Shown here: in pieces, positions 2,029 to 60,196 of the stretch
Layout: every line of letters begins with the position of its first letter
Position numbering within the stretch: the first letter of the stretch is position 1
NCBI GenBank assembly: GCA_918797485.1
Contig: CAKKNE010000003.1
Span: 3,658,001-3,722,000, forward strand
DNA: 64,000 nt
Source of the DNA: Pelagomonas calceolata
Lineage: Eukaryota
Reading direction: 5' to 3'
Notes under the pieces: model-generated
Seen by the model: the letters and a program-made list of their open reading frames with translations, nothing else
Databases searched by the model: none
Told to the model about the DNA's origin: nothing
Translations under genes and position numbers: made by a program

Positions 2029-2665
2029 CTAACAGGCCTTCTTCTCGCTGTTGTTGCGCAGCCGCCCGTAAATTTGAGGCAACGAGACCACTACCGCGAG
2101 GCGCAGGAACGCGCTCGTATCAATACGAGACGCGTCCGCGGCGAGTGCGAGGTATATAACGAGCTCCAGGACGCATATGGTCGCACCCAGGAAGTCGCCC
2201 ATAACGCCGCCGAGGACCGACTGGCCGTAGGCGCCGGCGACGACCGTTCCCACCGCCGTCGCGGCGAGGACACGCATAGCAGCCTCAACGGGCAGCAGTC
2301 CGAGCGCGATGATCATGGCCGACACGATGGCCCCAAGCACGCGCCACGGGCCGAGAAGGCGACGGCTATCCCCAAACCAGTTGTAGAACTCCCCTTTGGC
2401 CTGTGTGCGAGATAGACCGTCACCGCCACGCCGTCGAGCAGATGATTTCCGCACCGCCTGTAACGTCGGCGTCGTCCACCACGTACTCGTAGAAAAATAC
2501 CAGCGGCGCCGCGGACGCCCGCGCCACACTTTGCGCGACGACGATCGCGGGGCCCGCGCCCGCCGACGCGCCGACGGCCCAGACCGAGGGCCCGAGGGCC
2601 GCGATCGTCGCGCACTTGGCCAAACACCAAAGGCCCGCGCCGACCGTCGCGTACGAGCCGCTTCC
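2029..2665 (-). pseudogene. cobS: Cobalamin synthase (CobS)-like C-terminal half, 2 exons (intron 2401-2464); N-terminal half not found
   Basis: Spliced product GSYATVGAGLWCLAK...AQSVARAS...DDAD|AKGEF...LGGVMGDFLGATICVLE matches the CobS C-terminal GGxTGDxLGA..E pattern and is hydrophobic; there is an in-frame TGA just upstream of GSGSY. Confidence 0.55.
2401..2456. mobile_element. Degenerate introner family A copy in the cobS-like gene
   Basis: CTGTGTGCGAGAT...GATTTCCGCACCG; donor 8 nt outside; flanks CCTTTGGC/CCTGTAAC (5/8). Confidence 0.6.
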
Positions 2666-2799
2666 CCGTCACCCCGTTTGTGCAGCATTCGACCCAATGT
2701 TCGGGTAGAAAGGAACTGCACATGAGCTGTTGGTAACCACCAGGCGGGTTATAAAGTTGTTTTCTGTGTGCCCATTCGCCGGGGGAACAGGAGGGGTAG

Positions 2800-3090
2800 C
2801 TATTTTCTGCTCCAACCAAAATCGAGCGTTCGGCCGCCCGACGAGCGGTGTTGCGAGAGCTCGGCTATCACGGCGTCCTTCTCGGCTATCACGGCATCCT
2901 TGTTGGCCAGCGCGGCGTCCTTTTCGGCCAGCGCGGCGTTCAATCGCTCGACCTCCTTGGCCAGCGACGCTTCGAACGTGTCGGCGGTCTCGCCCGACGC
3001 AGCTTCCTTGACGCCCCGTAGCGATGGCGGCGCGACGGCGCCGGCCGCCGCCAGCGCGACGGCGAGCAAAATAGTTTTTATGCGTGCCAT
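2800..3090 (-). CDS. Small protein with signal peptide and heptad coiled-coil repeats
   Basis: MARIKTILLAVALAAAGA signal-like start; AEKDAALA/NKDAVIA/EKDAVIA repeats. Confidence 0.45.
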   Translation of the reverse strand: MARIKTILLAVALAAAGAVAPPSLRGVKEAASGETADTFEASLAKEVERLNAALAEKDAALANKDAVIAEKDAVIAELSQHRSSGGRTLDFGWSRK

Positions 3091-3344
3091 CTTCGTGTTA
3101 TGTCAGCTACAATTGTTGGCTGTTTTTTCAATGAGGGCGAAACTCAAGGTTTCTTCCTCCTGGCTCTCTCGGTGGAGTAGTCGATAGGCGATGAGGGCTA
3201 AGTCAAACCCTGCTCGATGATCGGCGCGCCGCGCCGCCTCTTCTGCGCCACTTGACGATTATTTGGCAGCTGCACGAAACCCGCGAGTCCTGGTGCCAAG
3301 CGTAGATGACGGTATAGATACGACTTAATTTCGATTTAATACGA

Positions 3345-6300
3345 CTAGTTCGACGCCGCCGCACGCCGTCGTTCCCGCTCCCGGCGGTCGACCTCGCGGC
3401 CGACCGCCTTCGTCAGCTCCTCCACGAGCAAGATGGGCAGCGAGAACTTGGCGACGGTGATCCAGTTCGCCTTCGTAAGCGGCGCGAGGCCGAAGAGGCC
3501 GCGGAGCCACGGCGCATGTAATAGGAACATATGCAGCGCGACGGGCAAGGCGACTCCGGCGAGGAGCCAAGGATTGGCCCACGGCGCGACGCGCAGCAGC
3601 GAGTGGTCGAGCGACACGGCGCTCAGCGCCTTGAGCCTGCGCGGACGTCGACCGGTGAGCTCCAGCCGGCACGCCGTCGAGCAGAAACACATGAATACAG
3701 TGTCACGTCGACGGTGTCGAGGCACGCCATCGAGCAGACACGGCGTAGTTGCGTCGACGGCGTGGGAGGGAGCGACATGATGCACCAAGAAGCGGGACGC
3801 CGCGCGACTCACATCTCCATCGCGACGAGCGTCGTCAAGGCTAGAGTTTGCGCGGTGGCCTTGACAGCGCCTTTCGCGCCGAAGGCCCCAGCACAAGCAT
3901 CGCTCCCCGCCTGTGTGGAAATCAACCAGTGTGTCGGGTGCACCCGACAATTCTTCACTAAGTCATTTCTCGGCGATGACGTGGCCGCGCTGGCTCCGTC
4001 GAGCGGTGAGGAACCGGCATCGCCACGCCATCGAGCAGGCGTCGCGTCGATGGCGTGGAGGACGACGCGACGATTCAGCACGAACGCGCCGTAAAAGCTT
4101 GATTTCCACACAGCTCCCCGCGTTGATGGGAGCGAAGTCGGCCCACGCCGGCTCCTTCAGGTCGCACGACGCCCACGACCGCAGCCGCTGTCGACTTACA
4201 CCGCGATCCTTGAACTCGTTGAGGAACACTTGGATCGTCGCGAAGCCCACATAAGCACCGGTGATGGCATATCTACCAAGTAACCACGGCGTCAGGATCG
4301 GCGCCTTCGGGTCTCTGGGCGGTCTGGACATCGCATCAGGATCGGGCGGATTAAACCCTAAGGCAGTGGCGGGCGGCCCATCAGTGACGAGGTTCACCCA
4401 CAACAACTGCAGCGGCGTGAGGACGTCCGGCACGCCGAGACACGTAGCACCGAAGACAGTAGCGACCTCGCCGAAATTACAACTCAACAGAAAGCAGACA
4501 AATGCTTGCATGTTCTTGTAGATCCCGCGACCTTCTTCCACGGCGGCCACAATGGTAGCAAAATCATCATCCATGAGGATCATGTCCGCCGCTTGCTTGG
4601 CCACCTCCGTGCCCGCGATGCCCATCGCCACACCGATAGAAGCTTGCTGGAGCGCCGGAGCGTCGTTGACGCCGTCGCCCGTCATCGCCGTGACGTCGCC
4701 GTGCGCGTCGGCCAGCAGCTTGATGATGCGCTGCTTGTCGGCCGGCGCCGTCCTACAAAACACGCCGTCGCCCGCGGACGGCGCGAGCAGGTCCTTGCGC
4801 CGGCCCTCCGCTTCGGCCGAGTCGTCCGCAAAGAACGCATTGCCCTCCCAGGCGCGCTCGTCGCTCTCCAGAATACCCAATTCCTTCCCGATGGCGACGG
4901 CCGTCTCCTTGCTGTCGCCGGTGATCATGAAGACTCTCACCCCAGCTGACTTGCATCGCGCTATCGCTCGCTTCGCCTCCGGGCGCGGGGGATCCCGAAT
5001 GCCCGCGACGCCTTCCAGGATCAGATCGGACTCAAACGCCTCGTGGGCCGCGGGCCCGCCCCGTTCCACGTCCTCCCACGCGGTGACGTCCTTCGTCGCG
5101 AGCGCGAGGCACCTCAAAGGTCGAGACGCCATCGCCGTGACTTTCTCAATGAGCGCGGATCGCGTCGACTCGTCCAATGAAACAACAGACCCGTCCTCCC
5201 GGCGCACGCGCGTGCACCGCGCGATGACCGAGTCCGGCGCGCCCTTGACATATAACGACGTGGCATCGCCGCGCGTGCAGACCGTGGACATGGACTTACG
5301 TCCTCTATCAAACTCCAACGTCGCCTTCCGCTCGAAGGCGTGGCGCCAGGACAGCGCCGCCCGCTGCCAGGCGCCGGCCTGCTCGTACCCGGCCGGCTTT
5401 CGGAACGGGGGCGGTCCTAGTTTTTCGGCGAGGACGCGCAACGCGCATTCTGTTGGCTCGCCGACTCGAACAAATTCGCCCGAATCCTCGTCCCTTGCCA
5501 ATTGCGCGTCGTTGCACAGCGCACAGACGGACGCGCACTGCAATAATCGAACGTCGGCACAACCATTGCGCTCTTCAAAGCCTCGCACGTCACCGTCGGT
5601 CGGATCGTACGAGCCACCTGTCACTTCCAATTCGTCAAAAGTGCCCGACGACGGAATTAACAAAGAGACGACTGTCATCGCGTTCGTCGTGAGCGTGCCC
5701 GTTTTGTCACTACAAATGACCGACGTGCATCCCAGCGTCTCGACGGAGGGCAAGCGCCTTACGACGACGCGCCGCGCGGCCATCCTTCTGGTTCCTAGAG
5801 ACAAGCATAGGGTGATAACAGCAGGCAACCCCTCGGGGATGGCCGCGACGCCCAACGCCACGGCTCCTTTGGCGTAATGGGCCGCGCCCTTGAGTCGGTT
5901 CCCGCCAAACACCGGAGACCCGAACCTCGGCACGGAGGCCGCGAACGTCGCCGCGCAGATGCCGCCGATGACCAGTGTTAATTGAGAACCGAACTCGTCG
6001 AGCTTTTTTGCGAGGGGCGTCTTCTCCCTATCGGCTCTAGCTGCATCTACGCCCGCTTGCACTCTTCCTATCTGCGTCGACATGCCTGTGGCGACCACAA
6101 CACCGGTCGCGTGGCCCCGCGTCACGACCGTGCCCGCAAATACAATGTTCGACCGGTCGGCCAGAGGCGCCTTTTCATCAGATACAACATCGAGATCCTT
6201 GGACGTGGTCACGCTTTCGCCCGTCAGCGCGGCCTCGTCGGTCGAGAAGGCCGACGTCTTGAGTTGGAGCAATCTACAATCAGCAGGTACCTTGTCCCCG

Positions 6301-7014
6301 ACCCTCAAATACACGACATCACCAGGAACTAATTCGGACGCCTGGACCTCGCCGTCCCAGGCGCTGTTGCGTCGCACGCAGCACCTTGCTGGTTGTAATT
6401 TCTCCAATGCAGCTAGCGCACCATCTGCCGAGGATTCTTGCCAGACACCTACTGCGGCGTTCGACATCAGGATCAAGGATATGACCACGGGGTCGACCCA
6501 GGCCGTCGGGTCCTCGGCGTCGAGCATGCCTAGTACTGCTGATAGCACCGCGACGCCCACCTGCGCGACCGAACGGCCTCGAAATCGGAAAAGAAACCAC
6601 CCACGTCATCGTGAGATGGACACGAGTCGCGTCGATGGCGTGAAGGCGCCTCTACACAACGGGACGCCGAGATCGCACGAGTATCTGCACGAGTCGATCG
6701 TCGAACTGGTCCAAAAGCATCTGCCACTGCGTCCTCTTCGCAGCTTGGACGAGGACGTTCCTTCCCGACACTTCTCTTCTTCTTGTCACTTCGGCCTCGG
6801 ATAGACCGGCGTCCGGTTTCGCCGCGAAGCGCGTCACAGTGTCCGTGGCCGTCCAGGCGTGGGCACTTTCGGCCTCGGCGACGGTGGGCAGTGCCGGCGC
6901 GGCCGCGGCCGCGGGCGCGGGCGCCGCGGATCCGCCGCGCAGCGCGAGTGGCCGCAGCGCGCGCCGCCGCGGCAGCGCTGCGGCGAGGCCCGCGCATAGC
7001 AGCAATGCGCGCAT
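3345..7014 (-). CDS. P-type IIA (SERCA-like) Ca2+-ATPase, 4 exons (introns 6561-6678, 3911-4121, 3637-3812), with N-terminal signal-like presequence
   Basis: Motifs LTGES, AAIPEGLP, CSDKTGTLT, KGAP, MITGD, MTGDGVNDAPAL, LLWVNLVTDGPPATALGFNP; splicing restores the frame through MEM|LKALS. Confidence 0.93.
3911..4113. mobile_element. Introner / MITE family A, 203 bp, 15-bp TIR, perfect 8-bp TSD CTCCCCGC (3903-3910, 4114-4121)
   Basis: CTGTGTGGAAATCAA...TTGATTTCCACACAG interrupting the Ca-ATPase CDS. Confidence 0.92.
6561..6678 (-). mobile_element. Introner-like intron, family B
   Basis: Aligns end to end with 41989-42109 in infB. Confidence 0.7.
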
Positions 7015-7382
7015 GGCTGCCGGGCTGCTACGCGTGTGTCTGCAGGTAGGGACGCTACAAATGCAGCCTGCTAGCGTTCGCGCCAGTCAGGCCTACCGCG
7101 AACTGGATGCTGCTGCAGAGGACTGCAGCTCGCACAACCTGCTCGCACTACTGCAAAAATGCAATGCAATTGCAGGGCAAAAAGCTAGTGTGCCGATACG
7201 CTAGCTTTTGTCGAGGCCTTGCACAAGGTTGTGGATGGATACCAGGGCGTAGCGCTGCCTGTCGTGCCGTAGACAATGCCTGACAACGTCCTTTGACTGC
7301 TGCGCTGCCATAGCCGCTGTTTGCAGTCGTGTCACGGCTGCTCTCCCTGTCCAGCTGTATCATAGCTGCTCGGTTTGCATCC

Positions 7383-8468
7383 ATGCGACGCGCACTGGTC
7401 TGTCTCAGCTGCTGCGCCTTCGCAGCAGCGTTGGTCGCGCCGCCACAGCAACGGACGACGCGCACGGAACTTCACGCGGAGTCGCGCTTCTGGTCCTACG
7501 ACGGTGTGGACGTCCACTACGCCGTCGAGCAGGCGACGAAACCATCAGATGCGGTCGTCGTCTTCGGCCCGGGATTTGGAGCGGGCGCGTTCCAATTTGA
7601 AGACGTCTGCAGACACGTGGCAAATGGAGGCGTCGACGCGATCGCGATGGACTGGCTCGGCCAAGGGCGCTCGTGGCCCGAGGGCGACATGGCGGGGCGG
7701 AACTTTGGGGTGGAGACGTGGATCGCGCAACTGACGGCGTTCGTCGAGCAGCTCGACTACTCCCAGGTCTACGTCGCGGGCAACTCGATTGGGGGCCTCG
7801 TGGCGGCGTCCGTGGCCGCGCGGTCCGATAAAGTCGCGGGCTGCGCTTTGCTGAATCCGACGCCGTTCTGGAGCTTCTGGGGTGTAAATGGATGCCCGCT
7901 CTGGTCCGGCGACCTGCCGGGGCCGGCGCCCTTCGAGGCTTTTGGAGGTGCGTGGTTCGACGCTTTGAGGGATGAAAAGACGGTCCAGTCGTTGCTGAGG
8001 CAGGTCTACGCGGCGCCGGCCCGGGCCGACGACCGGCTGGCGCGGGACATTTGTACGAGTGCGGCGCATCCCAACGGGCCGCGCGTGTTTGCGTCGATCT
8101 TGTTCGCGGGACGAGCAAAAGATGAATTCGACGACGTCATGCGACGGCTGGGCGAGAAGGACCTCAAAACGTACCTCGTCTATGGGCGGGAGGACCCCTG
8201 GGTCCGGCCCATCTGGGGCCAGCGGGCGGCGCGGCGCTTCGCCGAGGCCGGGCGGACGGCGCCGTACTACGAGCTGTCGCCGGCGGGCCACTGCGTGCAC
8301 CACGAGGCGCCACACGCCGTGGCGGCCTGCGTGTTGAAGCTTATTCGCGGCGTCGACGTGCCTGTGTCCGTGCAAGAGGACCACGGGCCCCGGATAGCTA
8401 TCGAGGAGCGGGGTCCGGCGGCGCCGCGCGGGATTCTTGAGCGCGTCGCGGCGGGGGCGTGGGGGTGA
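7383..8468 (+). CDS. Alpha/beta hydrolase (pheophytinase-like), probably plastid-targeted
   Basis: PGFGAG, GNSIGG nucleophile elbow, YGREDPW, AGHCVHHEAP. Confidence 0.85.
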   Translation: MRRALVCLSCCAFAAALVAPPQQRTTRTELHAESRFWSYDGVDVHYAVEQATKPSDAVVVFGPGFGAGAFQFEDVCRHVANGGVDAIAMDWLGQGRSWPEGDMAGRNFGVETWIAQLTAFVEQLDYSQVYVAGNSIGGLVAASVAARSDKVAGCALLNPTPFWSFWGVNGCPLWSGDLPGPAPFEAFGGAWFDALRDEKTVQSLLRQVYAAPARADDRLARDICTSAAHPNGPRVFASILFAGRAKDEFDDVMRRLGEKDLKTYLVYGREDPWVRPIWGQRAARRFAEAGRTAPYYELSPAGHCVHHEAPHAVAACVLKLIRGVDVPVSVQEDHGPRIAIEERGPAAPRGILERVAAGAWG

Positions 8469-8785
8469 CGTAAGGTTCGGAAATTGTTAGTTGCGCGTCG
8501 GCGGCGCCGTCGTCCGTGGTGATGAGGCGTGATCGGGATAACTGGGCGGCTCGTCGGCGGCGCGTCGGCACTTGAGGCGGCTGCGAAAACACCGGCGCGC
8601 ACCGGATTCCGTTTCGGGGGCACTCTATGATTGTCCTTCCCTTCCGAATGCTCCGTTACGAAAAAGGACACTGACACCCGCACGCGAGGCAATGATTGCA
8701 GCCTCGCGCACCGGGCTCTCCGATAGGATTTGGCTGCATAGCGGTGCACCGTTGCAACGACAACAACGCAGAAAGCATTGCAAGG

Positions 8786-10062
8786 ATGCTCGCACTGCGC
8801 ACGCTGCAGCGCGGCGCGCCGCGATGGCTGGCGACGCGCGCCGCCTCGACGACACCGGTAGCGCTGGTCGGCTGCGGCATGCCCGGCCGCGGCATGGGCT
8901 GGTATCACGTGGCACGCGGCGTACAATGAATTCCCGCGCGAGCTTCACGATTTGTCCGCAGGCCAAGCAGATTCTGGACGGAGACGTGCCCTCGGCCACG
9001 TTGACCGACATCGTCGAGCCCTGGTTCCTCGGGGGAGGAAAGGACGGCCCCGGCGGCGCCGAGTTCGCCGCCTTCAAAGCCGAACACGAGGGCAAGGTGC
9101 GGTTCCACGCGAGCATCGCGGACATGCCAAAACCAGATGGGAAGATGATGGCCATGGCGCGGACGCGGCGTCTTTTGCACGCCGCGATGGCGTCGACGCG
9201 CGTCGCGGCCGCGCAGGTCTGCACGCGCACGGCGGACATGCCCGGCTACGTCGACGAGCTCGTGGACCACGGCGTGTCCCACGTCTTCCTCGAGAAGCCG
9301 GGAGCCCCGACGGTAGATGAATTAGGACGCATGAAGGACGACTGTGCCAAAAAGGGCGCGACGATCTGGATGGGCTTCAATAAAAATGTGACGGCCTACG
9401 TGACGAAGGGGCGCGAGGCCCTCGCGAAGGTGCCCGGCGGCGACTTCACGCTCGTGCACCACAACGCGTACAAGGCGGACGAGCTCGGCGAGTGCTTCGA
9501 AAGGAACGCGGAGGGCATGCTCAAGAACATGGCCATCCACGAACTCGCTTTGTTGGTCACGTTCTTCGGCGTCAACTCCGAGACCCTGTCGGACGTCGTC
9601 GCCGACAAGGCCTACTCGGACCTGCGGACGGAGAAGGGTCCGTCGTCCGGCGACGACTTCACGGACTTCTCTCGCATCGGATTCACGGTCACGACGAAGG
9701 CAGGAGCCAAGGTCAGCGTCTACGCCGACCGGTGCGGCCTGGAGCTGCCCGACGGCGCGATGGCGGACGGCGGGATGATGTACTCGTCCGTGTCGAAGCT
9801 CGGGATCATCCAGTCGCGCGACATCATGCCGGATGCCGACCTCGTGGCCACGGTCGAAGCTAGAAGCAAGGAGAACCCGGACTGGATGCCCTACTTCCAC
9901 CTCCAGCACGACGACTACATCACGCTGAAGGAGCGGTGCACGGCGCACATCGCGTCTGGGGCTTCGGGCGACCCGGAAGGCATCGCGACGATCCAGGTCG
10001 GCTACGACACCTTGAAATTGGCGGAGACGCTCAAGCCCTTGCTCGAGAAGCAGCTCCTCTAG
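8786..10062 (+). CDS. Gfo/Idh/MocA-like NAD(P)-dependent oxidoreductase, 3 exons (introns 8909-8961, 9157-9216)
   Basis: VALVGCGMPGRGMGWYH|AKQIL; FLEKPGA; MAIHE; mitochondrial-like N-terminus. Confidence 0.8.
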
Positions 10063-10167
10063 AAGGCTCCCCACGCCGTCGACGCGACAGACGTGTCTGC
10101 CCCCGACCCAAGACTAACTCCCGCCCTCGTGTATAACATTTCCCATCGAAGGCTAGTTACGCAGGGA

Positions 10168-10884
10168 CTAGTCGTCCTCCTCCATCCACGTCCCCTTCTT
10201 CGCCATGGAGTCCGCGTCCCACGGCAGCGTCACGCAGGCCACTTTTCCCAGAATGGTCCAGCCGTCGTAGGCGTCGTCCATCCTTCGGATGGAGCAGTTG
10301 CCGTTCGCATCGGCGTAGCAGAAGAAGGACCGGTCGCTGAAATCGATTTCGCCCCGGTCGATGATCACGAGGCATTCCTTCTCGTCGATCATCAGTCCGA
10401 GTGAGCCGGACGAGGCCACAATAGCGACGGGATCCAACGCGCCGCAAATGAGATCAGAACCGGGCATCGCCACGACGCCGTACTCGGCACCATGAGCATC
10501 CGGAAAGTCAAATAACCAGAGGCCGTCCTGCTCCGGCGGCTCGGGCGCCATCGGGACCGCGGTCACCTCCGCTTGTGTTAAGCCGGGGTAGATCCCTGCT
10601 ACACGGACGATGCGCGGCCACAGCACGCCGTTATCTAACTGGTCCAAAGGTAAAAAACAAGACGCTTCCCCATGCAACCCTTCCCCGACGCTCTGGACCT
10701 CCGCCTGGGGCGCGGAGGCAAACGGTGACTCGTCGGCCATGGTCAACGCGGTCCCGGCCTCTCCATAACGACTCGTGTCCCAGCCGCCCGCCGGCTCGCT
10801 TCGTAGGATTGTCCTTCGTGGCTGTCTTGCGACGGGCGCTTGGAGCGCGGCGGCGCCGGCGAGGAGTAAGGTGGCGCGCTGCAT
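10168..10884 (-). CDS. Hypothetical protein with bipartite plastid-like presequence
   Basis: 238-aa ORF; signal-like MQRATLLLAGAAAL followed by an Arg-rich transit-like segment and a globular remainder. Confidence 0.7.
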   Translation of the reverse strand: MQRATLLLAGAAALQAPVARQPRRTILRSEPAGGWDTSRYGEAGTALTMADESPFASAPQAEVQSVGEGLHGEASCFLPLDQLDNGVLWPRIVRVAGIYPGLTQAEVTAVPMAPEPPEQDGLWLFDFPDAHGAEYGVVAMPGSDLICGALDPVAIVASSGSLGLMIDEKECLVIIDRGEIDFSDRSFFCYADANGNCSIRRMDDAYDGWTILGKVACVTLPWDADSMAKKGTWMEEDD

Positions 10885-11337
10885 GGTGAATTAGTTTGTG
10901 GGGCTCCCGGAGCGAGTGCTTCACGGCTGCGGGCGCTGCACACACTGTCGTCGCCACACGCTGGCTGGTGTCCGTACAGCGGGACGCGCGTCAATGTGCA
11001 AAGCCCTGGAGCTGTGCGGTAACTCCCGCCAACCCTGGCTAGCTGTGCTGTGTTTTAGCACCGGCCTCGCCCGCAAAAACACTGACATGCAAGCTGAGTT
11101 ATCTAGCGTCGACACACTAGCCCTAATGTCAAGGACATTAGGTCCTATCTCGTCAAGGACCTAGGCAACTCGATGGTAGCTGCCTATGGCAACCGGGGAG
11201 GAATGGGGTCGGACTCGGCGGAGTCCGAGACGAGCTCCGAGACGCGCGCGACAGTAGACGCTCCGTCCACTAGTCCTAGCACCGTAACGAACAATAACCC
11301 GCCAGACGCCATCGCCGCAATAACAATCAAGAGATAA

Positions 11338-12733
11338 TTACGCACACCGGCCCAGCGCAGAAGACACCAGGAACTCGCGGTACGCCAGGGGGCCCTCGCG
11401 CGACGCCCACAATGCCGCCGCGTCCGCCTCCGAGACGTCGAGAGCCTTGCGATACGCGTCCACATCCTTCACCTCGAGCTGCGACGCCTCCACTCTAGAA
11501 ACATAAGCGCGAGCCGCGTCCGTACACCCATCCAAATCCAAACCCAATAAAAGCTTGCAGGTCCGCGTCTCCGGCATGGCCCAGGCCAGGTCATCGGGCG
11601 GCCTTTTATAAAGTTTCCGACACCGTCGCTGCAATCTCTGATCATCATGGGAATGATTGGACAAAAGTACTTGCAAGCACTCGGCAATACTACCACGGAC
11701 CCGACCCGCGAAATCGGAAGGAGTCTCATCAGCTTCCTTGGACGTCACATCCAGGAACTCCACTTCCATGCCGTGATGCAGATCAAAGGTAGCCCGTATG
11801 AAGTGCCAGACCATGTTGCTTGGATCATTCGTAGGGTCATATGAAGAACGATGGTAGCGCACGGCCACGGGCTGCACCGTGTGCCCCAATCGGAACGCGC
11901 CGTCCTTGAACGCCAACACTTGTCTCCCGTCGGACGTCTGGCCCTCGGCGAAGACTAGGAACTGGGGCGCGTCTTTCTCAGACAATTTCGACGTCATGTC
12001 CTGCCCAGCCTTCGCCCTTGATTCTGAGGACGACTTGTCCACGAGCACGAACTCCAAAGCGCGCAGCACGGACGCGACCATGGGGATCGACGCCTGCGTC
12101 GAACGACAGCGTCGCGAATCTGCCTCCGTTCACTCGCGAGACGCGTAGATTGTCATGCGGCCGCGTCGACGGCGTCGCGGTGGCGTGGCCGACGCCATCG
12201 ACGCGAACTTGAAGTTCGGAAACGGTCAGAAACAGACGCTGAGTCACCACTGTTTCGATCTCCGCCATGCCACACGGCGTCAGGATCGAAGTGAGGTAAA
12301 AAGTTTCCACAAATGAGACGTGATTGGAGCAGATGATTTTGGCTTCCGGCGATGGTTTTCCGGTCTGTTGGATGTAGTGGTAGCCTAAGCAGAAGAGGCC
12401 CGCTCGGATGCCTCTCATGGCTATCGCGAGGAGACAGCGGCGGCCGCAGGACCGCGCCGGCAAGCACGCCGCCAGGGCGGCCGTGCAGCCCGTCGAGGTG
12501 AACACGACGATGAAGAGCACGATGCGCGTCAGGGCTAGCGGGAGGATGAGCAGCGTGTAGAGCGACCGGAGCGGAGTGCCACATAAAGGCGTGCTCCGGT
12601 TCCTGAGAGAATCTCGCTCGTTATCTTTCAACGGAAAGGCGCCGCTCTTGACGGCCTCGAGGACTTCTTCTCGTGTCTTCGTAGGTGCCGAGGCGGCGGC
12701 TCGCGACGGTGCGGCGCCGACAGGCATTGGCAT
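11338..12733 (-). CDS. Lysophospholipid acyltransferase (LPCAT/LPEAT-like, PlsC family), 2 exons (intron 12094-12250)
   Basis: CSNHVSFVE, VFAEGQTSDG, FKDGAF, VQPVAVRY; splice gives EIET|ASIPMV. Confidence 0.85.
12094..12250 (-). mobile_element. Introner-like intron, family C
   Basis: Start GTGGTGACTCAGCGTCT and internal GACGCCGTCGACGCGGCCGCATGA shared with 58949-59104. Confidence 0.65.
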
Positions 12734-13242
12734 TCGCCTCGACGGCGTGCGGAGCAGCTGCAAAAGTGCGTGGTATTCGTGTCGTAGAGCGATGCGATTA
12801 GCTAGCACCTTCGTCGCGCCGCAGGGCTGCCCACGAGTTTGGACTGTTGGCAGCCCAAATCCGAGCGTGCGGGGGGTTTGGAGCTTTCCCTCCGGTAGGG
12901 ATGCGGTGCAACCAGGCGTTTGAATGAAGGCGTGTGGGGAGTTGTTCACGCGTGCGCTAGTGTGTGTCGACGCTAGGTTAATCACACAGCCTGGCAATCG
13001 GGCGATTTTAGCACTGCACGCGCACGCACGGTCATTCTGGCATTGCGTGCATCGAACTGCTAGCCTAGGTCTACGCTGCCGCGGCGAACCACAGCTTCGC
13101 GCTTCTCACTGCGCAAGACAGCCTCACTGCAGCAGCAGCTTGCACAGGCGGCGCCGGGCTAAGTCGACGCTGTCGCAGCGCAACAACAGCGCACAGAACA
13201 GCAACAGCCTCACTGCAGCAGTAGCGCCGTGCCGCAGCAGCC

Positions 13243-14226
13243 ATGGCCGAAGCGCCGGCGCCCGCGCCCAGCGCCGAGGATGAATTAGCCACGAAAATAT
13301 TAAGGCAGGTCGAGTACTACTTCTCCGACGACTCGTACCCATTCGACGACTACATAAAGAGCCAAGAGACCGATGGCTGGACGCCGCTGGCCACGATCGC
13401 GGCCTTCAAGAAGATGGTCTCGTATACCACTGATTTGGACGTCATCCGCAGTGCCCTCAAAGCGTCGGACGCCCTCGACCTCGATGATAGTGGAGAGAAC
13501 CTGAAACGGCGCTATGTCACGCCCGACCAGGACCCGCACAAGGAACGCATAGTGCACGCGTCGGGCTTTGGCGTCGACGGCGGCAAGGAAGCCGTCGAGA
13601 CGAATATAGGGAAGGCCCTGGAGCGCTTCGGGAGCGTGGAGGACGTCCGCGCTCTTAGGAATTTGTCCCAGGATGGACGATTGTTGGATGGGAGCGCCTT
13701 CGTGCGCTTCGCCAAAAAGGAGGACGCCGAGAGCGCGGTCGAGATGTCGGGCTGCGTCATTTCCGGACGGAAGATCGGGCTCATGACTTCTGTGGACTGG
13801 TTCACGCGACTGGAGAAGAAGCGCGCGTCCATGAAGAAGAAGCGCGAGGAGAAGGACAAAAGGCCGCCGGTACCGAAGAAGGAAAATATTCCGGGCTGCG
13901 TCTTGCGGTTTGAGAAGTTGGAAAGTGTCCCGGAGTGCTCCCGGGAGGACCTTCGCAGTTGCTGCGAGAAGGCCGGCGGTCAGGTGAAGTACGTCGAGTT
14001 TTCGCGCGGCGACGCGGTGGGACACGTGCGGCTCGGCGCGCCGGGCATCCTCGAGAAGCTGACGTCTGAGCCGTCCATCAAGGATACGAAGGTCACTGCT
14101 TCTGTTCTCGATGGAGACGCCGAGAAGGACTACTACGCGCGCCTCGAGGAGACGGCCGCCGCGTCGCGGAAGCGGGGCGGCGGACGGCGGGGCGGTGGGA
14201 GGCGGGGCAAGCGCCAGCGCAACTAA
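13243..14226 (+). CDS. La (SS-B) RNA-binding protein: La motif, RRM and xRRM
   Basis: ILRQVEYYFSD..DGW..L.TIAAFKKM; GSAFVRF; basic C-terminus. Confidence 0.9.
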   Translation: MAEAPAPAPSAEDELATKILRQVEYYFSDDSYPFDDYIKSQETDGWTPLATIAAFKKMVSYTTDLDVIRSALKASDALDLDDSGENLKRRYVTPDQDPHKERIVHASGFGVDGGKEAVETNIGKALERFGSVEDVRALRNLSQDGRLLDGSAFVRFAKKEDAESAVEMSGCVISGRKIGLMTSVDWFTRLEKKRASMKKKREEKDKRPPVPKKENIPGCVLRFEKLESVPECSREDLRSCCEKAGGQVKYVEFSRGDAVGHVRLGAPGILEKLTSEPSIKDTKVTASVLDGDAEKDYYARLEETAAASRKRGGGRRGGGRRGKRQRN

Positions 14227-14233
14227 AACATTC

Positions 14234-15885
14234 TTACTTGAAGATACCATCGAGTAGAGGGTTCGACAGTAACCTTTGGGGATCATAGGTCGCGCGAGCG
14301 TCCGCGAAGTGCGTCAGCGCGTCATCACCCAGGCGCTTCTTCAACCGCTCCTGGACGCGCGCGTCGCCCTCGACCTTCGCCCAGTGCTCGAGGGCACCAT
14401 AAACAGGCCAGAGGTCGCTTTCGCACCTCCCCTTGTACTGCCGGAACGCGTCGCCGATGCTCTTCCGCACGCGCTCGTCGTCGGAGGGTAGGTACCTGCG
14501 AGAGACAACCTCTGATGGAGCCGAGGCGCGTCGATGGCGTGAGAGAGACGCCGTTTACGGTACATGATAATCCCGACCCAGCTAAAGAGCGCGTCCTCCG
14601 TCGTCGACCGCGCCGGGGACAAGAGAGAGGAAGAACCGGCCGTCCAGCGCTGCTCTATCGGTGCTGGGGCGGGAATACCTTCACTTTCAATAATGTCGAG
14701 CAGTCTCAGCATGTAGCGCATGTCCTTCCCGTCCGGTGCTGACCGCGTGCCGGCGGGGAAGCAGCACTCGTTGACCCACTGCTGGCCGCCACATTCAAAA
14801 TTCAGTTTCGTGGACGAGTCGCCGACGTGCGTCCCTTGCGACCGCCTCCAGAACTCCGCCTCCGCTCTATTGATCTTCTTCACATGTTCTAGGTCGAGCG
14901 GCTTGACGGCTAGGAGCGCGTCGCGCAATTCCGCAAATCCTAGACCCTCTCCATCGTCGCCACTCACGTCTTTCAACAACGACCGGAAGGGCTCGAGGCG
15001 ATACTCCATGTCATGCCTAGGTTCGTAGCCCTGGCCCGCGCCCAAGACGCCGTCGACCGTCGGGTTATTGGACACGACCACCACAGCATCGGCGAACGGG
15101 ATCCACATGAACCGCACATGCCTATTATCTTGTATGAGTTCCGCGTGTCTCTGTATAACCTCCTGCCTCGTCAGAACTTGCGTCCTTTCCCGCAGCAGAT
15201 GCTTGGGAACACATCGTAATGTCAAAGTCAAAGTGACACCTAGTAATCCAAGAGAACAGGGAAACGCATGAAAGTCCGCATCTCCACGTTTTTTTGTGAC
15301 GACGCCCTGACCAGGAGTGGCGACGGTCATCTCCAGAACATGCTCGTCGACGGGCGGCAGACACGCCCCCGTCCCGTGCGCGCCGGCGCCCACGAAGCCG
15401 CCGACTTGTTGCGCCGCGATCGAGGCCAAATTCTCGAGCGTCAAATTGTGGGGCTCGAGAGCTTCGAGCACCTGCTCGACGCGACACCCGGCCTCGACGG
15501 TGACTGTTCTGTTTTCGACATCCACATTTAACACCTTATCTAACAGAGCCAGGTTGATGAGGGAAGACCCGTCCTCCGCGAACGCGAGGCCGTTCGGCGA
15601 CAGGGCCCCTCCCACCGGCCGGATCCGCTCGTTCCTTGATGCATGCTCGGCCACGATCTGTATCGCTTCGTGGCGCGTCTCGGGCGTCTTCACATGCACC
15701 GAACAGGCGTGCGTGCCGGACCAGTTGACGACGTTTTCTAGCTCGTCCTCTTCTGCTTTTGTTTGTGTCGCGAGGAGCAGCGCCGCCGCCGCGGCGAGCG
15801 GCGTCCAATTCGAGGGTCCGGACGCGGCGGTCGTGCGCGCATGGCGCAGCGGCGCCGCGCGCGCGACGCGGAGCAGCAGGAGCAT
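14234..15885 (-). CDS. GLDH: L-galactono-1,4-lactone dehydrogenase (mitochondrial FAD oxidoreductase), 2 exons (intron 14496-14563)
   Basis: NWSGTH, PVGGALSPNG, GAHGTGA, FECGGQQWV, PAPAPIEQRWT, SWVGIIM|YLP, HWAKVE, DPQRLLSN. Confidence 0.92.
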
Positions 15886-51030: not shown

Positions 51031-52170
51031 TTATTTTTTACTCGTCGGCGGCGTTTCGCGGGCGGCGAGCGCGGCTCGCGCGTTTCGCAGGAATTCCTCA
51101 ATCCCCGCTGTGACCGGGTGCGTGCCGCCCATCAAGCGCCTTGCGATCCGTGCCGTGTCTTCGAGCGTCGTCACGGCCTCGCGGAGATCGTCGAGCGTCG
51201 CGCCGTCGGCCCGGCAGAGCGCCTCCGCGTACATCGACCGCATCCTGAGCGTGGCGTCATTACTATCGCCGAGAATACGTCGTGCCACAGGAACCACTTT
51301 GCGTGATAGTGACTTGACTTCTTCGAAGCGCGATAGATCCTTAAGGGACGACGCGTAGTTGTTGGCCGCTCGGAGGGTGCTCTCATGCTCCTCGCCCAGT
51401 AACTTCAAACGTCCGGAGTATACATCCCGTTTGATCTGCAGTGCCCGCTCATGCCGTCCCAGGCTTGCATACGTTGTCGCGAGATTGCTCTGCACGTCAA
51501 GAAGGACCCCTTCTGGTACGTGAAGGCGCCGCATCATAGACAAATTAGCCTCTTGCACGGACAACGCGTCGTTATAGTGGCCTGCCGCGTATAAACCGCC
51601 TGCGAGCTGCCTCATCGACAAGAGCCAAAATCTATCCGTCTCCGGCCGGCCCATGTATGTCTTCCAGCACGCCCATCCGAGCGCGCACTTCACGACGCCG
51701 TGGTATTTTTGCTCACACAAGCTGCACGTGTGCCAACGATCAAATCTCTCACCAAACGCCTTGGCGTCCAGATTGTTCTCCTCGGCTTCCGCGACCAAAA
51801 TCTTCGCCTGCTCCGCCAAGCACGACACGTGCGCGAAACCCGCTGTCCCACGGCACGCGCACCCGCGCACGAGGCCCTCCTTCGTTTTCCAATGCAAAGC
51901 TTGCGTGCAGATGTAGCACGTCTGGCCCTTGGTGTCGTCCGCGCACGCCTCCGCCGCGACCGCGACTGCCTCCGAGTACTTCTTATTTGCGTTGTATTGT
52001 TCAGCGCCACCAGCCTTTTTTATTGGTTTGCAGAGCTGGTCATGGCCGCCCTCTTTCCAGTGCTGCACCTGGCATTCAGCCCCACAGTAGCGGGTGCTGC
52101 AGCGGCCGCATTTCTTGCCCAAGGATAAGCCAAGCTCGGTGGCGCAGACGGCGCACTGCGTGAGGATCAT
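51031..52170 (-). CDS. zf-MYND + RINGv + TPR (kinesin light chain-like) protein
   Basis: CAVC...CGRC...YCGAECQ..HW..H..C; CYIC...CACRG..GFAHVSCL...CSLC; TPR helices. Confidence 0.88.
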   Translation of the reverse strand: MILTQCAVCATELGLSLGKKCGRCSTRYCGAECQVQHWKEGGHDQLCKPIKKAGGAEQYNANKKYSEAVAVAAEACADDTKGQTCYICTQALHWKTKEGLVRGCACRGTAGFAHVSCLAEQAKILVAEAEENNLDAKAFGERFDRWHTCSLCEQKYHGVVKCALGWACWKTYMGRPETDRFWLLSMRQLAGGLYAAGHYNDALSVQEANLSMMRRLHVPEGVLLDVQSNLATTYASLGRHERALQIKRDVYSGRLKLLGEEHESTLRAANNYASSLKDLSRFEEVKSLSRKVVPVARRILGDSNDATLRMRSMYAEALCRADGATLDDLREAVTTLEDTARIARRLMGGTHPVTAGIEEFLRNARAALAARETPPTSKK

Positions 52171-54009: not shown

Positions 54010-54042
54010 GAATGTTTGTGAACGTATAAATTACCCAACCAC

Positions 54043-55359
54043 CTACTTCGCCCGGAAGCCCTGGACCGTGTCGACGAAGAACTTCGCGTGCGGTTCAGGC
54101 GTGTCGGCCTCGATGCCGTGGCCGAGGTTCATGACGTGGCCGTTGTGCGCGCCCGCTTGCAAGATTTTTTCCGTCTCCTCCTTGATCTTCTCCAGGGGCC
54201 CGTCCCTCAATAGTTTCGGGTCCAAGTTCCCCTGCAAGGCCAAATGATCCGGCATCTTCGCTCTGACGTCCGCGAAATCAACCGTGTAGTCGAGCGACAC
54301 GCAATTGACACCCGTAGTAGCCAACAGATCCAGGAACTGGCCGTCCTTGGAATGGATATCAGGGGCCATGTAGATAATCACGGGCGTCGTCGGGTGTTTG
54401 GCTTTGATGGCCTCCACCACCCGCTTCTGGTACGGCATCGCGAACGTCTCGTACTGGTCCTTGGGCAGGTGCCCGGCCCACGAATCAAACACCTGGATGA
54501 CCTGGGCGCCCTGGTCGACCTGGTAGCAGGCGTAGTCGCCGATGTTGTCCGCGAGCTTCGACAGGATGCCGTGGAGCAGCTCCGGGTTTTCCTCGCGCAT
54601 CTTTTTGACCTCCGCAAATCCCGAAGTGGTCCCCGTCTTGCCCTCGACGAGGTACGAGGCCAGCGTGAAGGGCAGGCCCACAAACCCAAGGACCGTCGCC
54701 TTGTTGCCGACCTCTTCTCGCAGCTTGCCGAGGACCTCGCCGACGAACGGGCACGCGGTGGTTGCGTCGAACTCCCCTTTACCCTTGAATTTCGCCAGGT
54801 CCGCCTCCGTGCGGATCGGCGGGATGGAGATGGCGCCGCCTTCCGAGATCTGGAACTCGACGCCCATGGCCGGTAGGGGCGTGAGGATGTCGGAGAAGAG
54901 GATGACGCCGTCGACCTGTGTGGAAATCAAATTTTACGGCGCGTTCGCGACCTCCAAGCCATCGGCGCGACGCCTGCTCGATGGCGTGGCGATGCCGGTG
55001 CACCCGACTCACTGTTTGATTTCCACACAGCCGTCGACGCCGTACGCGCGGAAGGGCTGCAGGGAGATCTCCAGCGCCGCCTCGGGGATCTCGGACCGCT
55101 CCCTAAAGGTGGGATACTTGGCCACGAGGTCCCGGTACACTTTCATGTGGCGGCCCGCTTGCCTCATCATCCACACGGGCGTCCGTTCTACTTTCTCGCC
55201 GCGCGCGGCGCGCAGCAGCAGCGGCTCATCTGTGGCTGCAGCTTCAGTAACCACAGCCGTTCGCGGCCTTGCCCTGGCGCCGCGGGCCGGGCCGGTCGCC
55301 AGCGCGCTGGCGCATGCGACGCACGCCAGCGCGCGCATCGCTATCCTTCGTACAGCCAT
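54043..55359 (-). CDS. hemE: Uroporphyrinogen decarboxylase, plastid-targeted, 2 exons (intron 54916-55038)
   Basis: [45 protein letters not shown]. Confidence 0.96.
54916..55030. mobile_element. Introner family A, 115 bp, perfect 8-bp TSD CCGTCGAC (54908-54915, 55031-55038)
   Basis: Same TIRs; reverse complement aligns to 3911-4113 with internal gaps. Confidence 0.92.
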
Positions 55360-56050: not shown

Positions 56051-56069
56051 TGATATAAGAAACATGTAA

Positions 56070-59000
56070 TTACTTCAGCTGGTAGTGCCGGATCCCCACC
56101 TTCTCCGCGAACACCTGATTGAGCACCTTTTCGCAAGTCTCGACATCCCCCCTGGGCACCAATTTCTTCAGCCTTTTGTCCCGGAACACGTTCGCCTCGA
56201 GATCGTTTTCCGGAAAGGAGTACGCCTCCTTCTTCAGCTTCAGCGCCGAGCAAATCTCCTCGACGCGGTCAAGCCGGTAGGGTGGTCCTGGCTCAGAGAA
56301 CGCGTCGGACTGCGCGTCGACCAAGCGCACCACGCATGACGCGCCCGGGATCACCTCGCACTTCTTAACGGCCTCGTACGGGTCGGCCGCGTCCAGCACG
56401 GCGCGAGGGCACCGGCCCCGGAACAGGGGCAGGATGTGGTTTCCGCCGTCGACGTAGGATTTCCGCGCGAGGAACGACGTAGGCCGCGTCGGCTTCTGCA
56501 GGATCGGCAGCACCGCGAAGAATATGTCGTCGGCGTCGAGCCGCGGCGTTTGGCCCTTCACCAGGGGATCAAACCTTCGGACTTCGAAGACCGCCGTCAA
56601 GTGACCTGTGTGGCAATCAACCAGTGAGTATTACGGTCCGGGAACGACGTCGCGTCGATGGCGTGGGGCGCCCGAATTTTGATTTCCGCGCAGCTCGAGA
56701 CCCCCGGGTTTATCCCTAAATCGTCTAAAGCCATCCTGGAACGTCGGCGCGTTGTAGGGCTTCTCCCAGTCGTGTTTCAGCGTGAACCTGTGTGGAAATC
56801 AAATGTCGGGCGCCCCACGCCATCGACGCGATGTTGTCGCCGTGGCCGCGTCGGATCGATAGCGAAACCTAGCTCACTGGTTGATTTCCACACAGGCGCG
56901 CACTGCGCGTCGTCGGCCACGGAGGGGTCCTGGAAAAATAGGCCCGGGGGCGTCAAGACGGTAATAACCTTGTAGACGCTCGGCGGGTCCTTGCCGCTGT
57001 TAAACAATCCTTTCCTCTTCGAGGGGATGTTCCGCAGGCCGTCCACCGCTATAGAAAAGCCGAGGTCCGGCGCGTACGACGCGATGCGACGCATGTCTAA
57101 GAAATGCGAAACGCCGTTCTTGAATATCTCCGCCATGGCCTGCTCCACGTCGCCGCCCGCGTCGGCGACGTGGCCCGAACATAGCCCAGGGTCGCGCCGC
57201 CGCCTGCGCCGCTTGAACAGCTCGCGGTCGAGCGCATTTATAGAGCATCTCGAAGAGTCGTACGCGCCCGAATTATACGGCGGCGCCGGACTGTCAAGAC
57301 CCAGCGCGGCCCACCGTTGTTTAGGCACCGTCGCCCTTGAAAGGACCTCGAGGCCATCAGAAGACGTCGGCGCCGGCTGCACTCGCACTAAAACAGAACA
57401 GCCGAGCCATTTCTTATTGTTATTGAGGTCGTCCCAGCGCAGTGTCTGAATGTGGGGGTGCGGCCGCGTGAAGATGGGAAGTTGCCAGCCACCCTGGTTG
57501 AGGCAGTAGCCCTGGGACTGTTCATCGGCCGGTTGGGCCTTGTTGTCGCCCGGGGCGTGGAACAGATTTAACAGAGTGTAGCCCAGGCATCGGGCTTTCC
57601 TTCCGGAAGGTAAATCTTCGTCCAGCGCGTCGATGCGAATCAGCAGCGTACTCGTCGGGTCGAAGGCAGCTCTACGGAACTCCGCCACGAGGTCGAATCT
57701 CGGCGTGAAGCGCTTGCCATCCGCATCACAAAGCTTGACCACATCATCTTGTACTTTTTCGCCCTGGGCGTAGAGTCTTACTGTAACTCGGGACGCGCCT
57801 GCAGAATCAGGCAGCCCGCGGATGCCGTCGACAAACACGTCTACGCCAGAACCATCAGAGAAGGGTTCTGTGGCAGCGGGCCTTTTCGTATCCAGGAAGC
57901 CGTGCTCATCATTTATAGCCTCGTCATTCTCCTCTTGAGGCGCGTCCTCCTCATCCTCCGAGCTTTGCACGATGTTCCTTGTCCAGGCATCTTCCGGGAT
58001 CTGGACGCCGGGGTCGTCTGAGTCTTCTGACGAGGAGGAGGACGACGAGGACGAGGATGACGATGAGGCCGCCCGCACCGACGACGGCCGTTTAAGTGGA
58101 GGAGGCGCTTTCACTGGAAGTTGTGCCGGAGGCACGTGGACATCCTTAGCGGTACCGCCCCAGACCGCATACCTATCACCCCTTCTCATACAGTCGACTT
58201 TGTGAGGAGGTAGAGGCGCGAGCGCGTGGAAGATGCGCACCCTTACATCGCTCTTGTATTTCGACGGTGGCCAATTATCATCGCTCTTCCAGGGCCCCTT
58301 CTGCAACGGCAGCTTCCAGGCTCCTGATCTCAACTGTCCAGAAGAGAAGGGTTCCGGTGACGCGCTACCGACACACGTAAAGTCCTCTCCGTCCAATTCG
58401 CGCGACGCCTGCACCTCGAGCACCAACCGCAATCGTTTCGACGCGCCACACACGTACAACGACGGTTGATCAGCAAATGAACAAGACCCGTCATCAGACG
58501 TCCGCGCACATCTAGTCGCTCGAGACCGACCCAGCGCACCTCCACATGGATTCTTGCCGTCATACAACGCGTAGACGACGCGGACGCGCCTGTATTCCTC
58601 TGAACCAACGAAGCCGTCGAGCACGACCCCGAAACCCGTACTAGGGTCGTACGGCATTTTTTGAGGGGCGTACGGATCGAGAGCGACGTCGGCCGTGTCC
58701 ACCTCCCGCTGCAACGCTTTTTCGACGCGCAAGGCCTGGATCCTTCTTCTCTGAGCCTCGAGCCAGTAGTCGTGCTCCCGCTTTTGCCTCGCCTCGTGGC
58801 CCTCTCTGTCCAGTCGATCTCTTAACTCAAGAAGCTGCTCCCGTCTCCTACACTTCTCCAACTCAAAGTCCAACGCCACTAGTTCCTTCCTTTGCGACGC
58901 GTCGAGGGGGTCCTCGTCCTTGGGCTGCGGCGCGGGGGCTTGCGCGACCTGCGCGGCATCGCGTGATCACGACGACGGCGTCGAGGCGGCGTGGCATTGC

Positions 59001-60196
59001 GTCGAAGCCATCGACGCGACCCACTCTCACAATATGCGTAGGCTCTCGTGCGGCCACGTCGACGGCGTCACGGCGATTGTCTCAAGTAGACGCTGAATCG
59101 GCACCGGCGTCTTCGGCCGTCTAGAACTCTTGGGCGTCACGTGCCGCTCTTTGAGGCGTTGCACTTCCGTGAGCAGCTGGGCGTTCTCCCTCCGCAGCGT
59201 CTCGACGGCCTCGCGCGACTGGCGCGCCGTCTCCTCTTTGAAACGTCGCAGCTGGTCGTCGAATTTTTGTTGTTGCTGTTGTTGCTGCAATTGCATCATC
59301 TGGAATTGTAAGAGAGAAGAATCCTGGTGCTGCGCGGGCTGGGGCGGCGGCGGCGCGTAGTATGAGGGCGGCGGCGCGTAGCCGTACGGAGGCATTCCAG
59401 GATACGTCTGCTGGAAGCCGTAGGGCGGCGGCTGCTGCTGTTGTGGTGGCATCGACGGCGTCGGTTGGCGCGGCGTCGGTGCCTTAGGCGTCGGCTGTCG
59501 CGGCGTCGGCACTCGTGGAGTAGGCGCCTTCGGAGTCGGCGGCTGGGGCGTCCGCGGCCGCCCGGCGCCCTGCAACAGACCGCGAGGGTCGCCCTCCAGC
59601 CACGCGTCCAATAATTCGGCGGGCGACCAGTCCTCGCTGGCGCGCGACGGCGGCGGGCGCGGTTCAGCTTCCGCTCGCAGCTCCGCTATACGTCTTTCTT
59701 GAGCAGCGATCCCCGCCGGCGACGCGAGCTCCCCGATTAATGTCTGGAGCGCCTCGCCCGACGACGGTCTCGGATCAGGTGCCGTGCGCACGCGCAGCGA
59801 GTCCCGCGTCTCGGACAGCGTGCGCTTCACGGAGCGCGCCGACCGCGCCGTCGCCATCGGTTCCTCTTCAACAACGTGGGCCGCCCGCTCCAACGCCGCC
59901 ACCTCCTCGGCCAGGGCGGCGCGCTCGGCCGCTCGCGCCGCCGTCTCGCGGTCCAGTCGCGCGAGGTCCTCGGATTGAGCTTTGCGCAGTTCATCCAATC
60001 TTTCACGGCCGACGCCGGCCAGCTCCCGCCGCAGTCGATCCCGCTCGGCCGCAATCGCGAGCTCGCGCTGGTGGCGCTGCACGAGCTCTTCCTCTAGGGC
60101 TGATAGAGCTTCCTGTTGAGGCGCCAGGCGGTCCTCGTCCCTCGCTTGCAGCTCGAGGGTCGCCTGGTGCGAGGCGAGGACGTCGGGCGAGAGCAT
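56070..60196 (-). CDS. Large coiled-coil protein with C2-like domains (CCDC17-like), 4 exons (introns 58949-59104, 56788-56903, 56606-56701)
   Basis: The three hand-predicted splices join the ORFs in frame (KTP|VAQ; DAQ|FTL; PGG|HLT); repeated PYDP..GF.V..D and G.WQLP motifs. Confidence 0.7.
56606..56693. mobile_element. Introner family A, diverged TIRs, TSD 5/8
   Basis: CTGTGTGGCAATCAA...TTGATTTCCGCGCAG; donor GT 8 nt outside the element. Confidence 0.82.
56788..56895. mobile_element. Introner family A, TSD 6/8 (GCGTGAAC/GCGCGCAC)
   Basis: Perfect 15-bp TIRs; donor GT 8 nt outside the element. Confidence 0.88.
58949..59104 (-). mobile_element. Introner-like intron, family C
   Basis: Start GTGCCGATTCAGCGTCT and internal GACGCCGTCGACGTGGCCGCACGA; 156 nt versus 157 nt for the LPCAT copy. 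Confidence 0.65.

Follow-up and report, generated by a model that had tools for sequence, protein, structure and literature searches.

A word of about 14 bp recurs in probably introner-derived introns of Pelagomonas calceolata and appears to be kept after insertion

Introns of the window and the motif they carry

The DNA analyzed is a 64-kb stretch of Pelagomonas calceolata (contig CAKKNE010000003.1, positions 3,658,001 to 3,722,000), called the window throughout, with positions counted from its first letter. It is gene-dense, eukaryotic, and has a GC content of 63.5%. The subject is a short motif, with the core CGA(T/C)GGCGT, shared by most introns of the window and by transposable elements of the introner type. 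The host is, by its sequences, a pelagophyte, because the nearest named homologues of the uroporphyrinogen decarboxylase encoded in the window are those of Chrysophaeum taylorii (71%) and Pelagophyceae sp. CCMP2097 (68%). Both GC content and intron features agree with the main text of the published P. calceolata description (PMC9481584). Pfam searches with 11 exons returned ordinary host genes, the matches falling on intron-flanking exons of ten genes and on the gene holding the intron at 9157.

Introns are named below by their first position. All 21 starts listed in the original prediction are correct, the two approximate ones lying exactly at 39542 and 34941. Five introns (2401, 3637, 3911, 8909 and 9157) are confirmed by RNA joints, among those listed, from the poly(A) reads of one RNA-seq sample inspected over window positions 1,000-20,999, and the other 16 rest on reading-frame continuity; intron-free homologues, contiguous across the intron site, also support 54916. 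A gene model was trained on the window and tuned by two-fold cross-validation, its first setting having over-predicted; near the setting used, cross-validation gave 16 true, 5 false and 5 missed introns, and 32 of 35 stops. A motif-free candidate for a 22nd intron (2661-2842, minus strand), not among the RNA joints listed, is predicted at all settings of the model and would put 3090-2029 into a single frame. The intron denominator may be slightly above 21, given this candidate and the exclusion of introns in 5' untranslated regions (UTRs) from the survey.

The core is found in 19 of the 21 introns, as originally reported, and is missing from 8909 and 34941 even if one mismatch is allowed. The 2,761 intron bases contain 31 sites (11.2/kb), the remaining 61.2 kb of the window 29 (0.47/kb); CGATGGCGT alone occurs 18 times in introns and 4 times elsewhere in the window. 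The enrichment check proposed at the outset was run on 5,000 dinucleotide-preserving intron shuffles, which gave a mean of 0.39 sites (maximum 5) and at most four introns with a site. Chance is thereby ruled out as the source of the intron motif. Length-matched non-intron windows (5,000 sets) yielded 1.25 core sites on average, 8 at most. The five positions preceding the core (-5 to -1) are also constrained (C in 29 of 31 sites, G in 24, C in 25, G in 21, T in 21, the variants being CGCGT-, CGCGG- and CTGCT-), and the motif unit thus measures about 14 bp. It is used in either orientation, as had been noticed: both are found in six of the 19 introns, two hold several antisense sites, and the 11 single-site introns comprise six sense and five antisense copies.

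Introner families and probably older introns

Four window introns (3911, 54916, 56606, 56788) are elements with a 15-bp terminal inverted repeat (TIR) starting CTGTGTGGAAATCAA and an 8-bp target-site duplication (TSD); in a fifth (2401) these features are decayed. The acceptor AG is supplied by the TIR, the GT or GC donor by the TSD. The GC-AG intron 3911-4121 (minus strand) is made up of a full-length, 203-bp family A introner (3911-4113) and one TSD copy. Its TIRs lie at 3911-3925 (plus strand) and 4099-4113, its TSDs at 3903-3910 and 4114-4121, and the central cassette at 4024-4057 holds two motif copies in inverted arrangement. The donor GC lies inside the TSD, the acceptor AG inside the TIR, and the RNA joint skips 211 nt, with 9 letters fitting either side. 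The introns at 54916-55038, 56606-56701 and 56788-56903, all on the minus strand, are internally deleted introners with one motif each (an exact one in 54916), the first of family A (54916-55030, plus TSD) in the uroporphyrinogen decarboxylase gene, with TSDs at 54908-54915 and 55031-55038, the other two of family B. The GT-AG intron 2401-2464 (minus strand) is a decayed, A-like element of the TIR family with one motif at 2428-2436.

Further copies were sought in a metagenome collection, one element end serving as query. The scan yielded 121 stretches and covered 4 of the 64 parts of the collection (the estimated total being about 2,100), and all genome-wide counts given here rest on 120 environmental contigs from these parts (281 kb; L numbers below), which may belong to other species. 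The 120 loci analyzed gave 102 complete elements at 102 distinct sites, the other matches lacking a partner TIR or running off the contig; copies were de-duplicated on 30-nt flanks, and none was removed. TSD length peaks only at 8 bp, with 41 of 90 perfect and no peak at 3-7 or 9-11 bp, the count leaving out 12 elements with a poor partner TIR. Donors within TSDs are GT in 56 copies and GC in 15. In silico removal of element and TSD places 69 of the 71 assessable insertion sites in coding sequence, with the donor on the gene strand, two in introns and none in non-coding flanks; flanks were too short for 31 elements.

Behind the one common TIR lie three interiors, A (73 copies), B (25) and C (4); full-length copies of each measure 203 bp. 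Family A carries one central inverted pair of motifs (positions 114-147), B two pairs, C none. Within one mismatch, 65 of the 69 A copies and 19 of the 21 B copies have the motif, but none of the 4 C copies does, eight short copies of uncertain family being left out. All four C copies have the same TIR and intact TSDs, and an element with the shared TIR can accordingly transpose without the motif. They are also all full length (L009, L012, L083, L099): among copies with an intact TSD, 4 of 4 in C are full length, against 15 of 39 in A and B (p=0.03); shrinkage may depend on the motif.

Other traits of the elements deserve mention. A palindrome or short hairpin lies about 22-40 bp inside the left end, different in each family (in A at positions 23-38, window 3933-3948). 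The TIR has a second GT four bases in, the use of which would add 12 nt in frame (window 54916, 56606 and 56788; L040:6868, L046:994, L075:911), and the gene model often chose it; at 54916, homologues favor the TSD donor. A second in-frame donor has been described for an Aureococcus-like genome (PMC9860276). A CpG-rich variant of the TIR end is common to four unrelated introns (the 3' end of window 3637, L001:5254, L046:994 and L046:8084), which suggests either convergent AT-to-GC change or an earlier form of the TIR. Poly(A) RNA-seq reads that stem from other family A copies map in their thousands to 3911-4113, on both strands (depth about 375, against 10-70 nearby); family A sequence is abundant in the RNA pool, perhaps via intron retention.

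No TIR was found in the other 16 window introns. Their likeness to A or B outside the motif does not exceed weak scores, and TSD identity is mostly 1-5 of 8. The downstream exon begins with GT or GC in 20 of the 21 window introns (background 0.17, p=6e-15), as would be expected of the fossil of a donor co-opted from the TSD. Introns designated class II look like older element families, and pairs of them are homologous over 50-100 bp (6561/41989, 37042/58949 and 41989/12094). In 15 of the 16 TIR-less introns the word C.GYGT(C/A) starts at positions 7-11, after the first 8-10 bases, and is both strand- and position-specific. Examples are window 9157, 25261 and 39542 (positions 7-17), L005:2259, L021:1698, L021:4530 and L033:1017; the word aligns with the place where the TIR of young elements begins, and may represent either the end of an old element or an extension of the donor signal.

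Class II introns with one motif lie at 6561-6678 (minus strand; about 100 bp homologous to the first part of 41989), 9157-9216 (plus; GC-AG), 14496-14563 (minus; in a FAD lactone oxidase gene), 22761-22854, 25261-25328, 33418-33478 (in an acyltransferase gene) and 39542-39599 (all plus). Three motifs are carried by two class II introns, the GC-AG intron 22131-22294 (plus) of a choline transporter-like gene and 37042-37219 (plus), in which all three are exact and several degenerate copies accompany them. The second has about 50 bp homologous to 58949-59104 (minus), a class II intron with two exact motifs. The intron 3637-3812 (minus) of a P-type Ca-ATPase gene has a class II 5' end and three motifs, and 12094-12247 (minus), in an acyltransferase gene, an inverted pair. 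Two overlapping inverted motifs are found in 24442-24528 (plus), in an Nrap-domain gene, and three in the composite, 576-nt intron 41989-42564 (plus) of the IF-2 gene. The two class II introns lacking the motif, 8909-8961 (53 nt) and 34941-35019, are both on the plus strand, the second in a gene of the triose-phosphate transporter family. The genes named here were identified by Pfam.

That nearly all introns of the window are introner-born, as first proposed, is well supported by the TIR/TSD elements, the GT/GC exon starts in 20 of 21 cases and the class II homologies; for class II introns such an origin is the probable one. The motif is, again as proposed, present across different families, in A, in B and in class II introns.

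Retention of the motif and its occurrence behind genes

Deletions of at least 8 bp were analyzed in family A. They affect 49 of 69 copies in 48 different patterns, nearly all private, with 6 of 67 endpoints shared. Left breakpoints cluster at positions 30-34 irrespective of gene orientation (31 of 76 deletions start there), most at the centre of the left-end palindrome. Deletion carries a strong mutational or transposition-linked bias, and two null models were therefore used, one placing deletions at random and one anchoring them at the end. Under random placement at least one core is kept in 45 of the 49 deleted A copies, where 32-34 are expected (0 of 3,000 runs), and in 16 of 18 B copies, where 11.1 are. 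Under the end-anchored null, applied to all 73 A copies (53 deleted), the figures are 48 of 53 against 41.6 (p=0.002), and 18 of 23 against 11.8 for heavily deleted copies (p=0.002). TSD divergence rises as copies become shorter (rho 0.30, p=0.006, n=82).

Rare substitutions in family A are about threefold fewer in the cores. Those shared by no more than two copies and lying 6 bp or more from a gap number 9 in 1,122 core sites (0.008/site) and 114 in 4,308 sites of other internal sequence (0.027; p=6.5e-5), singletons 6 (0.005) and 62 (0.014) in the same sites (p=0.015). The deficit holds for G/C sites alone, is weaker for A/T sites, and is also seen in copies with aged TSDs. The motif was said to persist where TIRs are no longer recognizable: 14 of the 16 TIR-less window introns indeed contain an exact core, with little A or B likeness in the 12 bases on either side.

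The motif is not confined to introns. The 3' flanks of window genes hold six core sites, 2.4/kb against 0.39/kb in coding sequence (0.10 sites in shuffles). In the related contigs, cores number 45 in predicted introns (3.0/kb), 9 in 3' flanks (0.70; 0.54 sites in shuffles), 4 in 5' flanks (0.22) and 56 in coding sequence (0.32). The top de novo 8-mer of 3' flanks is GATGGCGT, found in 9 of 122 segments against 0.38, and it is not among the top 18 8-mers of 5' flanks. Nearly all 3' sites (14 of 15) lie at most 47 bp from the nearest coding end (range 10-47 bp), and none of the 15 shows likeness to an element beyond the word at p<0.05. In the window, cores follow the stop codon by 24 bp at 11306-11314 (minus strand), 25 bp at 29783-29791 (plus), 39 bp at 31691-31699 (minus; convergent gap) and 43 bp at 34646-34654 (plus); another, at 46236-46244 (plus), lies in a convergent gap, and the one at 10073-10081 (minus), 11 bp after the stop, in an apparently unspliced 3' UTR where RNA ends at 10145. 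The motif thus marks introns in that it is enriched there, as first claimed; it is not specific to them, six sites being found in the 3' flanks and three in the 5' flanks of the window. Tests found both a constraint on the motif independent of element mobility and its occurrence outside elements.

The excess in 5' flanks is weaker, 3 against 0.16 in the window and 4 against 0.58 in the related contigs, and other words rank on top; the motif was discarded as a promoter word on both counts. These flanks are dominated by GGCTGCCC/GGCAGCCC (21 of 165 segments, against 1.8) and CTAGTGTC (9 against 0.33), which are candidate promoter elements.

An early caveat, that some exon copies arise by chance, is right for the C variant. 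At fixed protein sequence this variant occurs 18 times in window exons (7.1 expected) and 29 times in those of the related contigs (15.1 expected); CGACGGCG ranks first of 32,768 8-mers by z in coding sequence, with the same twofold ratio as other CpG-rich 8-mers. The excess is treated as part of a general CpG preference. For the T variant, exons show no enrichment (1 against 1.9 in the window; 8 against 4.6, maximum 9, in the related contigs). CG dinucleotides in window coding sequence are 6-7% above the synonymous-codon null and multi-CpG 8-mers about twofold over it, a codon-pair preference for CpG.

The strand symmetry of single sites, 6:5 in window introns and 10:7 in environmental copies, favors a role at the DNA level, as argued at the outset. 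No compensatory, double-sided change was found in 11 hairpin pairs, and no shared RNA fold in 12 introns (z-scores from -3.9 to +1.4, three below -2). Function as an RNA hairpin was rejected on these two results, and it is the sequence, not the hairpin, that is kept.

Periodic CG density was also considered. Huff and Zilberman reportedly described in 2014 a Dnmt5-type signal of this kind at nucleosome linkers, and a fusion of SNF2 and methyltransferase is of Dnmt5 type. A related species encodes such a fusion, according to a published annotation supplement. The linker signal was rejected for the motif, there being no periodic CG phased to it.

Unrelated to the motif is a repeated family of related genes (window 51031-52150, 61785-62741 and 62934-63920, with members in L001 and L067; DNA identity to these two 77-79%), which carry zinc-finger-like and repeat segments; two members lie in tandem.

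A putative host site and its alternatives

The reading preferred here, held tentatively, is that the 14-bp word is a putative DNA-binding site of the host, carried by some introner families and kept after insertion. The introns are likely all insertions of non-autonomous DNA transposons. These elements insert in exons and splice out cleanly by means of the AG of the TIR and the GT or GC donor of the TSD. They then erode around the central word, deletions starting 30-34 bp inside one end and sparing it. The sparing would reflect purifying selection on the host side, and a host protein would read the word on DNA in either orientation, because the word is spared in immobile copies, stands in element-free copies behind genes and has no strand preference in introns. 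The most likely job of such a protein would, at a guess, be that of a general organizer of chromatin or of transcription units. It might occupy the few non-coding gaps of a compact genome, within genes and directly after them, and there set the nucleosome register, for instance, or help to form 3' ends. An insertion bringing the site would be better tolerated, and could shrink to 55-120 bp. It is possible, if doubtful, that the word is the site of a chromatin or terminator factor of the host and serves as a 'passport', marking the ends of transcription units, so that elements capturing it are tolerated in genes and able to shrink. The same reserve applies to the idea that the site stays selected as the lasting functional core of every new intron, one DNA-level signal holding most introns of the genome.

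Several observations weigh against a host-bound site. The prevalence of 19 in 21, true in the window, is high beside the related contigs, where an exact core is found in 22 of 63 predicted non-focal introns. The motif is dispensable, since splicing or read-through takes place in two window introns that lack it. The copies in class II introns are not independent, these introns being in part homologous to each other. Retention of both cores under the end-anchored null, 34 against 30.0, is not significant (p=0.06), and the substitution minimum is a broad trough without a sharp edge. By eye, the 3' site in L112 is an element remnant missed by the flank test, and that in L042 is probably in a mis-predicted intron. 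Autocorrelation detected no CG periodicity in the window, in the related contigs or around elements and motifs, and the nucleosome-register idea thus finds no support in sequence.

Unlikely, in our estimate, is a neutral spread: the word, itself without function, would attract ectopic gene conversion or template switching between element copies as a hotspot, and would be duplicated, copied and repaired from its other copies. In favor of this are mosaic elements whose left end is of family A and right end of B (L050, L034), and local multiplication of the word (L036, 262 bp; window 37042). The word also overlaps two CpG-rich near-palindromes, 8-mers of this type being about twofold over-represented even in coding sequence, and the left breakpoint shared at the palindrome centre in any gene orientation bespeaks a strong mutational bias. 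Yet 3'-flank and class II sites have nothing of A or B beyond the word, the T variant is not enriched in exons, and the 3' sites are concentrated just after stop codons; 14 bp is, moreover, a short stretch of identity for gene conversion.

Improbable, too, is a subterminal site bound by the mobilizing transposase, conservation then mirroring the lineages able to keep moving. Transposases of miniature inverted-repeat transposable elements (MITEs) can bind subterminal repeats cooperatively, according to the Lemi1/Emigrant study (PMC1636448). The word is common to different families, copies of the motif-bearing A and B number 98 against 4 of C, and some deleted forms may have moved, since 6 of 67 deletion endpoints are shared. 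The 8-bp TSD fits hAT-type elements, this length being a feature of the hAT superfamily and of other superfamilies as well. A shared transposase-binding site, one of the two reasons originally offered for the motif, is disfavored by the motif-free family C, which moves with the same TIRs and intact TSDs, and by retention of the word in private deletions, in TIR-less introns and in element-free 3' flanks; the cassette is, besides, central and not terminal. No autonomous element was found among the TIR matches without partner in the environmental contigs (one, in L023, read by eye, leads to a bZIP-LOV-like host gene), the viral contigs scanned gave 0 matches to the TIR and 0 to the cassette, and PF05699, PF02892 and PF04937 (hAT or BED) are not among the entries listed of the published annotation. 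The two reasons originally offered, transposon and selected signal, are not exclusive: the motif was spread by introners and, on present evidence, kept afterwards.

A signal at the RNA level, one that would enhance splicing when in introns and serve 3' processing when behind genes, is very unlikely. In its favor, the seven 3' sites that have a gene end on just one side are all sense and at most 44 bp from the stop (p=0.016, in a subset picked post hoc), and young elements hold both orientations, so that one copy always reads sense. Against it, single intronic copies have no strand bias, the kept core is independent of gene orientation (24 and 26 of 29; 19 and 17 of 22), the 3' UTR that holds the site at 10073-10081 reads it in antisense, and no common fold was found in 12 introns.

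Known introners and the fate of transposon-born introns

Introner elements of Aureococcus anophagefferens were reportedly described by Huff, Zilberman and Roy in 2016. In second-hand accounts (PMC10228655, PMC7789003) they resemble the present ones in the pelagophyte host, in being short and non-autonomous, with TIRs and with direct repeats that do not vary in length, in carrying one splice site and co-opting the other, and in coding insertions in both orientations; an internal word common to families, kept after decay and in 3' flanks, is not found in these accounts. For P. calceolata 956 putative introner elements have been listed (Guerin et al. 2022, PMC9481584 / 10.1101/2021.10.25.465678), and the main text agrees with our data on a 63% GC genome, an intron length peak at about 210 bp, conserved TIRs, GT and GC donors and an AG acceptor. 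Its description is confined to element ends and mentions neither an internal motif nor a TSD length, a decay series or an older class; the logos of Figure S3 and Supplementary Data 3 may bear on this. Pelagomonas and Aureococcus families, 62-209 bp in length, are included in introner surveys (Gozashti et al. 2022, PMC9860276; 2025, PMC12130899), the Pelagomonas families being scored '?' for TSD and TIR, and 'subterminal' occurs 0 times in either main text. The transposase-bound subterminal repeats of the Emigrant/Lemi1 MITE (PMC1636448) are alike in that a short internal word is repeated in a TIR element; here, in contrast, the word has a central position, a sister family that shares the TIR lacks it, and it persists outside mobile elements. 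No description of an internal word shared across families was found in the literature searched, PMC11282704 included, which did not take in the text of Huff et al. 2016, and absence from print is thus not established. The transposon origin of pelagophyte introns is known; the selective-looking retention of the word and its copies in 3' flanks appear undescribed.

The word bears on what becomes of introner introns later and on why a host tolerates hundreds of them. The decay series from 203 bp to about 55 bp, with the TSD as clock, shows introners turning into ordinary-looking introns, and a word that outlasts the element, is blind to strand and recurs behind genes offers a direct handle on host tolerance. 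If it is neutrally copied, an unusual mechanism of motif spread would be at work; if it is a host site, transposon-born introns would be kept for a function at the DNA level.

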